DNA from: Escherichia coli
Lineage (GTDB): Bacteria > Pseudomonadota > Gammaproteobacteria > Enterobacterales > Enterobacteriaceae
Assembly (NCBI RefSeq): GCF_003019035.1
Contig: NZ_CP027447.1
Strand: one strand, 5' to 3'
Length of the DNA: 64,000 nt
Translations under genes and position numbers: made by a program
Notes under the pieces: model-generated
What the model saw: the letters and a program-made list of their open reading frames with translations, nothing else
Database searches by the model: none
Told to the model about the DNA's origin: nothing
Shown here: piece after piece, positions 19,885-20,166 of the stretch
Position numbering within the stretch: position 1 is the stretch's first letter
How the letters are laid out: every line of letters starts with the position of its first letter

Positions 19885-19969
19885 TGGTGGTGGGGGAAGG
19901 ATTCGAACCTTCGAAGTCGATGACGGCAGATTTACAGTCTGCTCCCTTTGGCCGCTCGGGAACCCCACC
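19885..19969 (-). tRNA. tyrV: tRNA-Tyr (GUA), distal copy
   Basis: Reverse complement reads GGTGGGGTTCCCGAGCGGCCAAAGGGAGCAGACTGTAAATCTGCCGTCATCGACTTCGAAGGTTCGAATCCTTCCCCCACCACCA (85 nt with long variable arm and encoded CCA). Confidence 0.95.
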
Positions 19970-20002
19970 AGGGGTAATTCAAATTCTGAGGTAATGCTTG
20001 AG

Positions 20003-20087
20003 ATGGTGGTGGGGGAAGGATTCGAACCTTCGAAGTCGATGACGGCAGATTTACAGTCTGCTCCCTTTGGCCGCTCGGGAACCCCAC
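20003..20087 (-). tRNA. tyrT: tRNA-Tyr (GUA), promoter-proximal copy
   Basis: Identical 85-nt tRNA-Tyr sequence 33 nt upstream (in transcript sense) of the first copy. Confidence 0.95.
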
Positions 20088-20138
20088 CACGGGGTAATGC
20101 TTTTTACTGGCCTGCTCCCTTATCGGGAAGCGGGGCGC

Positions 20139-20166
20139 ATCATATCAAATGACGCGCCGCTGTAAA
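20139..20166 (-). promoter_or_regulatory. tyrT promoter (-35 TTTACA, 16-bp spacer, -10 TATGAT, GC-rich discriminator)
   Basis: Minus-strand sequence TTTACAGCGGCGCGTCATTTGATATGATGCGCCCCGCTTCCCGATAAGGG is the classical stringently controlled tyrT promoter; about 43-nt leader to the tRNA 5' end. Confidence 0.8.

Follow-up and report, generated by a model that had tools for sequence, protein, structure and literature searches.

A naturally repeat-free tyrTV allele of Escherichia coli, the zero-copy form of a known variable-number repeat locus

Two tRNA-Tyr genes standing close together, with no repeats between or behind them, raise the question of whether a tyrTV locus of E. coli has lost its RtT repeats, never had them or was assembled incorrectly. 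We examined this question in a 64,000-nt stretch of contig NZ_CP027447.1 (assembly GCF_003019035.1), hereafter the window. ARAGORN identified two tRNA-Tyr(GTA) genes on the minus strand, the proximal one at 20004-20088, equivalent to tyrT, and the distal one at 19885-19969, equivalent to tyrV. Either gene scored 53.4 bits against the Rfam tRNA model RF00005, and the two copies are identical over 85/85 nt to each other and to tyrT and tyrV of K-12. A tyrT promoter scoring 10/12 in a consensus scan lies at 20139-20166 on the same strand (-35 TTTACA, 16-nt spacer, extended TG, -10 TATGAT) and is followed by the tyrTV precursor's 5′ leader of about 43 nt (20089-20131, minus strand), the start of which was placed from the position of the -10 hexamer. 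The leader is identical to that of K-12, and the sequence 5′ of the tRNA genes matches the K-12 tyrT upstream region base for base. Thus, ARAGORN, Rfam and the promoter scan agree with the first-pass annotation that an identical 85-nt pair lies on the minus strand behind the tyrT promoter. A tmRNA-like match in the purU-tyrT intergenic region (20202-20250; 10.9 bits, E = 0.2) was dismissed as chance.

Both tRNA genes, with their promoter and leader, are located in the purU-narI interval, which places them in the E. coli tyrTV operon. The region 19700-20260 is 100% identical to strain FDAARGOS_497, and in that record the gene order is rssAB, ychJ, purU, two tRNA-Tyr genes and narIJHG, i.e., ordinary core chromosome. 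The two tRNA-Tyr genes and the strong tyrT promoter are intact in the window, and tRNA supply from the locus should be normal.

The two genes are separated by a spacer of 34 nt at 19970-20003 (minus strand; TCTCAAGCATTACCTCAGAATTTGAATTACCCCT), one nucleotide longer than the 33 nt first proposed, which forms the 5′ leader of the distal tRNA and differs from the 34 nt preceding K-12 tyrV by one A/G substitution. Directly after the distal tRNA comes a unique C-rich 3′ trailer (19742-19884, minus strand), which is colinear with the K-12 sequence past its last RtT unit; K-12 carries three RtT units at the point where the trailer meets the distal tRNA in the window. The trailer contains a REP-like hairpin at about 19770-19792, its C/G ratio is 1.6-2.1, and its folding is weak (z = -1.06), no better than that of shuffled sequence. 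The first two bases past the distal CCA (19884-19883, minus strand) are AT in the window. At all loci examined, the other junctions past the CCACCACCA core begin with T (tc, tt, ta or tg); only the repeat-free allele has A as the first base past CCA. The tyrTV unit is bounded by the intrinsic terminator of the convergent narGHJI operon, which lies outside it and was found by the terminator scan on the plus strand only (19720-19741; a 9-bp stem followed by a T-run). The stem is 143 nt from the distal tRNA, close to the approximately 140 nt given at first, and narI is 185 nt away.

Does any repeat remain in the window? The RtT model (RF00391) gave no match in the full 64 kb either at E<=1 or at the gathering threshold of 45 bits. 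With its filters off, nhmmer matched RtT in the window only to the 3′ ends of the tRNA genes themselves, while the K-12 control was strongly positive. Likewise, tblastn with K-12 Tpr (29 aa) and YchS (91 aa) returned only chance matches in the window (E >= 0.1), the positive control in K-12 giving E values of 1e-16 and 1e-58. The search for remnants of RtT or tpr that the first-pass annotation had proposed thus found none by three methods. Its view of an operon contracted by the loss of most of the repeat region was accurate as to absence and too cautious as to extent, since all four units are missing; contraction applies to the distal region only and not to the spacer, for which 34 nt is the majority form in the species (see below).

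We then compared the locus with that of K-12. In MG1655, tyrT (1287538-1287622) and tyrV (1287244-1287328) are 209 bp apart, and rttR, tpr and ychS lie downstream. These values bear out the K-12 layout given in the first-pass annotation, a gap of about 200 bp followed by 178-bp rtT/tpr repeats, and the alignment sets 209 bp in K-12 against 34 nt in the window, so the two loci do differ in spacing. RF00391 has four matches in K-12 (133-138 bits), one in the spacer and three past tyrV. The 209-bp spacer is built from a single 175-bp RtT unit and the 34 nt that by themselves form the spacer of the window, and the distal array consists of three 178-bp units. In silico excision of the four units from K-12 gave a sequence colinear with window positions 19690-20260. 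Both junctions are free of indels, and the two sequences differ by a single substitution within the spacer and by roughly a dozen within the trailer.

All RtT units, whether 175 or 178 bp long, end in AATCCTTCCCCCACCACCA, which duplicates the last 19 nt of the tRNA. This core, a likely recombination substrate, occurs six times in the K-12 locus and twice in the window, at 19885-19903 and 20004-20022 (minus strand). The common 19-nt ends make the locus a set of direct repeats, between which unequal homologous recombination or replication slippage could add or remove whole units and even whole tRNA genes; as every unit ends in a copy of the tRNA 3′ end, its removal would be scarless. As a separate observation, positions 60-81 of the RtT profile (...cttcgaccaaggttcgactcgag...) weakly match the window at 19893-19914 and 20012-20033, overlapping the T-arm of each tRNA-Tyr gene on the opposite (plus) strand (E about 0.5, 5 bits). 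The match is very weak but hints at a kinship beyond the 19-nt common end, with the RtT unit perhaps being a degenerated tRNA-Tyr gene.

Short-read assemblers can collapse tandem 178-bp repeats, and a compact locus might in principle be a product of such collapse. To place the allele within the species, we surveyed 5426 complete E. coli genomes with 39-nt junction probes, on which a partial match stays below 80% coverage. The repeat-free distal junction, in which the tRNA is joined directly to the window-type trailer, was present in 109 genomes (2.0%), and at least 60 independent complete genomes match the window at 100% identity across a 321-nt stretch that takes in the two tRNAs and the two junctions. 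The carriers listed for this 321-nt sequence include IAI39, CE10 and a strain named ST648; phylogroups among the 109 were taken from the literature for IAI39 and CE10, both of phylogroup F and ST62 (PMC8281228). An identical allele in so many independently sequenced genomes led us to reject the artefact. Moreover, collapse would leave one copy of the repeat and not zero, and both junctions are clean and colinear with K-12. The probability that the compact locus reflects misassembly is practically negligible.

The same survey showed that the short spacer of the window is common: the tRNA is directly joined to the 34-nt spacer in 2900 of the 5426 genomes (53%), while the K-12-type junction of tRNA to RtT was found in 1920 (35%). 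With regard to the spacer, K-12 thus represents an expanded minority form. Most E. coli carry one to six or more RtT copies per locus, which RefSeq annotation marks genome by genome. With T denoting a tRNA-Tyr gene and R an RtT unit, the window, IAI39 and CE10 are T-T, LI60C3 is T-T-R, CFT073 is T-T-R followed by an island, and TUM1886 is T-T-R-R-R. Among alleles with a unit in the spacer, O157 493/89 is T-R-T, O157:H7 RM8376 is T-R-T-R-R, K-12 is T-R-T-R-R-R and BKQ37E is T-R-T-IS3-R x5. The probes for a K-12-type repeat-free distal end and for the TCACTTCCTG variant were confounded, most genomes matching them at >=90% coverage, because the RtT unit begins similarly (TCACTTTC). For repeat-free alleles with these other flanks, exact top matches alone were usable (O157 493/89 and a handful of others), and hence no total is given.

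Two of these loci carry further insertions. In BKQ37E (L005, 3033-4410), ISEc52, an IS3-family element with a frameshifted transposase, is located inside the first distal RtT unit, and at least five further units follow it in what is the largest array seen. In CFT073 (L002, 3070-5377), tyrV-RtT is followed, in the place of narI, by an island encoding an acyl-CoA desaturase, a member of the sterol desaturase family and a PAP2 phosphatase. E. albertii, E. whittamii and two further lineages of Escherichia have the same junction sequence (tcacttgattccatt...) after the locus (L007, L064, L077, L047), so that the desaturase island may date back to the ancestor of Escherichia, with loss in many E. 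coli, the window strain among them. In a sampled ranking, about a third of the E. coli records did not join the distal flank, which may reflect the desaturase island or long repeat arrays.

How did the repeat-free allele arise? The window-type distal flank is also found in TUM1886 (T-T-R-R-R) and LI60C3 (T-T-R), and the trailer of TUM1886 differs from that of the window solely in the first base after CCA (ttactt versus atactt). As the nearest relatives in the distal flank bear one to three RtT units, deletion is the likely origin. We consider it most likely, with a probability of roughly 0.85, that the window holds the minimal natural tyrTV allele, with zero RtT units, derived by deletion of distal units from a tRNA-tRNA-RtT(n) allele. 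Such a deletion would have occurred in a T-T-R(n) allele between the 3′ end of the tRNA and the identical core closing the last RtT unit, and its product would now be inherited in a lineage including the phylogroup F strains IAI39 and CE10. The two bases past the distal CCA, AT in the window, are TC or TT in every one of the RtT-bearing relatives, and no genome of the collection has this exact AT flank behind an RtT unit; the account therefore requires one or more additional substitutions, or else a deletion that was slightly imprecise. We infer the direction of change, that is, deletion of distal units, from sequence comparison, since a scarless recombination event cannot be read from its product and T-T loci free of repeats are found in other species as well.

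The latter raises the alternative that the repeat-free arrangement with a 34-nt spacer is an ancestral state retained here, nothing having been lost and RtT units having been acquired or multiplied elsewhere in E. coli. Species-representative genomes, scanned by pattern, yielded 85 tyrT-type loci across Enterobacteriaceae, which were decoded with ARAGORN and the RtT profile and, for a subset, with Rfam. In agreement with an ancestral state, a T-T spacer of about 35 nt is the commonest arrangement among the 85 enterobacterial loci and between genera, and several species have T-T loci without RtT (Escherichia sp. MOD1-EC7003, Yokenella, Silvania confinis, Lelliottia sp. V86_10 and Enterobacter chuandaensis). 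However, RtT accompanies tRNA-Tyr in E. albertii (T-R-T-R), Escherichia sp. E1V33, Salmonella diarizonae, Citrobacter, Klebsiella, Enterobacter, Leclercia and others, and this distribution across genera indicates that the repeats are older than E. coli. In E. albertii, Escherichia sp. E1V33, Salmonella diarizonae and most sampled genera, RtT stands after the distal tRNA. The T-T locus of MOD1-EC7003, within Escherichia itself, differs downstream, where it has the desaturase island, and hence represents an independent case. Within E. coli, the alleles that come closest to the window in their distal flank bear one to three units, and a published parsimony analysis infers loss of rttR in IAI39 (PMC3318445). 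Retention of an ancestral repeat-free state is thus unlikely, and deletion of the distal units is the reading we follow below.

The scan of other species also revealed variation of other kinds. A third type of spacer, about 140 nt long, is present in Escherichia sp. E1V33 (L064), Salmonella diarizonae (L067) and Pseudocitrobacter (L068). Of RtT it keeps only the last ~45 nt (profile positions 134-178), to which the conserved 34 nt are joined; Escherichia sp. E1V33 and Salmonella diarizonae thus read T, a 45-nt RtT remnant, T-R. Its occurrence in three genera suggests an old internal deletion or a distinct type of unit. In Citrobacter sp. MGH106 (L078, 7047-7470), the pattern scan found four tRNA-Tyr starts about 120 nt apart with spacers of roughly 35 nt, of which ARAGORN called three as tRNA-Tyr genes, so the count is three or four. 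This multiplicity points to expansion of the tRNA gene, too, by unequal recombination.

The loss of the repeats might affect the end of the transcript. The K-12 tyrT transcript reportedly has a Rho-dependent end within the repeats, in work ascribed to Kupper in 1978 and Rossi in 1981. The window allele is devoid of the rtT RNA, of the tpr and ychS reading frames and of the in-repeat termination region of K-12, and from the distal tRNA up to narI the terminator scan detected no intrinsic terminator on the minus strand. A C-rich and weakly folded trailer, 185 nt long up to narI, is compatible with Rho loading, and transcription of tyrTV in the window probably ends by Rho on this trailer or at the hairpins formed by REP and the narI terminator. 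Stabilization or arrest of the transcript may also come from the REP-like hairpin and from the narI terminator read in reverse. As the in-repeat termination region is gone and the strand has no intrinsic terminator, one could also imagine that a fraction of the transcripts from the very strong, growth-rate-controlled tyrT promoter reads convergently into the 3′ end of narI, coupling interference with, or antisense transcription of, nitrate reductase to growth rate, although we regard such coupling as quite improbable.

A related possibility is that the loss was selected for a change in function, such as removal of the rtT RNA, for which a role in the stringent response has been proposed, or a shift in tyrTV termination so that it reads into narGHJI. 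While the minus strand does have no intrinsic terminator before narI and many isolates stably carry the allele, the number of units changes freely from one lineage to another and inside lineages (O157 strains carry 0 or 2 distal units) and looks neutral, and only about 2% of genomes have the allele; selection for a functional change is accordingly very improbable. As these ~2% of complete E. coli genomes naturally do without rtT, tpr and ychS, all three appear dispensable in nature. The repeat-free strains amount to a natural knockout of rtT, tpr and ychS and could settle whether these elements function.

Two observations elsewhere concern the surroundings of the locus. In the window, Rfam gave one match to the rdlD antitoxin at 3690-3755 on the plus strand, and the FDAARGOS_497 record has two annotated Ldr-family type I toxin genes (L093, 36620-37262). 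K-12 presumably has three ldr/rdl copies at that position, in which case this would be another small tandem copy-number difference from K-12. In the same FDAARGOS_497 record (L093, 11966-13312), adhE and tdk flank an annotated IS4 transposase gene, which is located about 8 kb from the tRNA genes on the purU side.

Overall, the compact locus is genuine and shared within a lineage. It represents the zero-copy allele of a repeat locus already known to vary in copy number and is an ordinary variant, and the finding is of little consequence beyond bookkeeping. It does illustrate that K-12 is unrepresentative at tyrTV, its RtT-containing spacer being a minority form, and that tyrTV is a recombination-prone repeat array already in use for strain typing.

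That use is as marker ms09, which is said to come from the Shigella/E. coli MLVA scheme of Gorge et al. in 2008. On the window, the forward primer lies in the trailer (19829-19848, plus strand) and the reverse primer in the tyrT leader (20106-20126, minus strand); the two are convergent and flank the locus with one mismatch each, and the predicted amplicon is 298 bp in the window versus 1007 bp in K-12. With zero RtT units between the primers, the window represents the null-copy allele of ms09. The primers, GTGCCATCGGGCAAAATTAG and CCGATAAGGGAGCAGGCTAGT, were taken as reprinted in PMC8215070, where the marker is described with a 179-bp unit, up to nine alleles in one survey and amplicons of 445-1432 bp (PMC8215070). 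Loss of rttR has been reported for IAI39 and E2348/69, that in IAI39 by parsimony (Skippington and Ragan, 2012; PMC3318445). In addition, a K-12 laboratory strain with supF-A81 lost one tRNA gene together with an RtT unit (PMC12584984), which indicates that such events happen on laboratory timescales. The polymorphism, its use in typing and the rttR loss in IAI39 are thus all already on record.

Set against these known systems, the window shares with K-12 tyrT-tyrV-rttR(tpr) (b1231-b1229, b4425) its position, promoter, leader, both tRNAs and the 34 nt of spacer, and the K-12 trailer past the last repeat is homologous to that of the window. In contrast, the 175-bp unit in the K-12 spacer and the three 178-bp units with rttR, tpr and ychS have no counterpart in the window, which has only the 19-nt tRNA 3′-end core in common with the RtT family RF00391. 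The copy-number variation scored by ms09 is the same variation as found at the window locus, although the 298-bp product, the smallest conceivable amplicon with two tRNA genes, falls below the range reported for the marker. From the tyrTV allele of IAI39 and CE10, which is 100% the same over 321 nt, no difference was detected at the locus.
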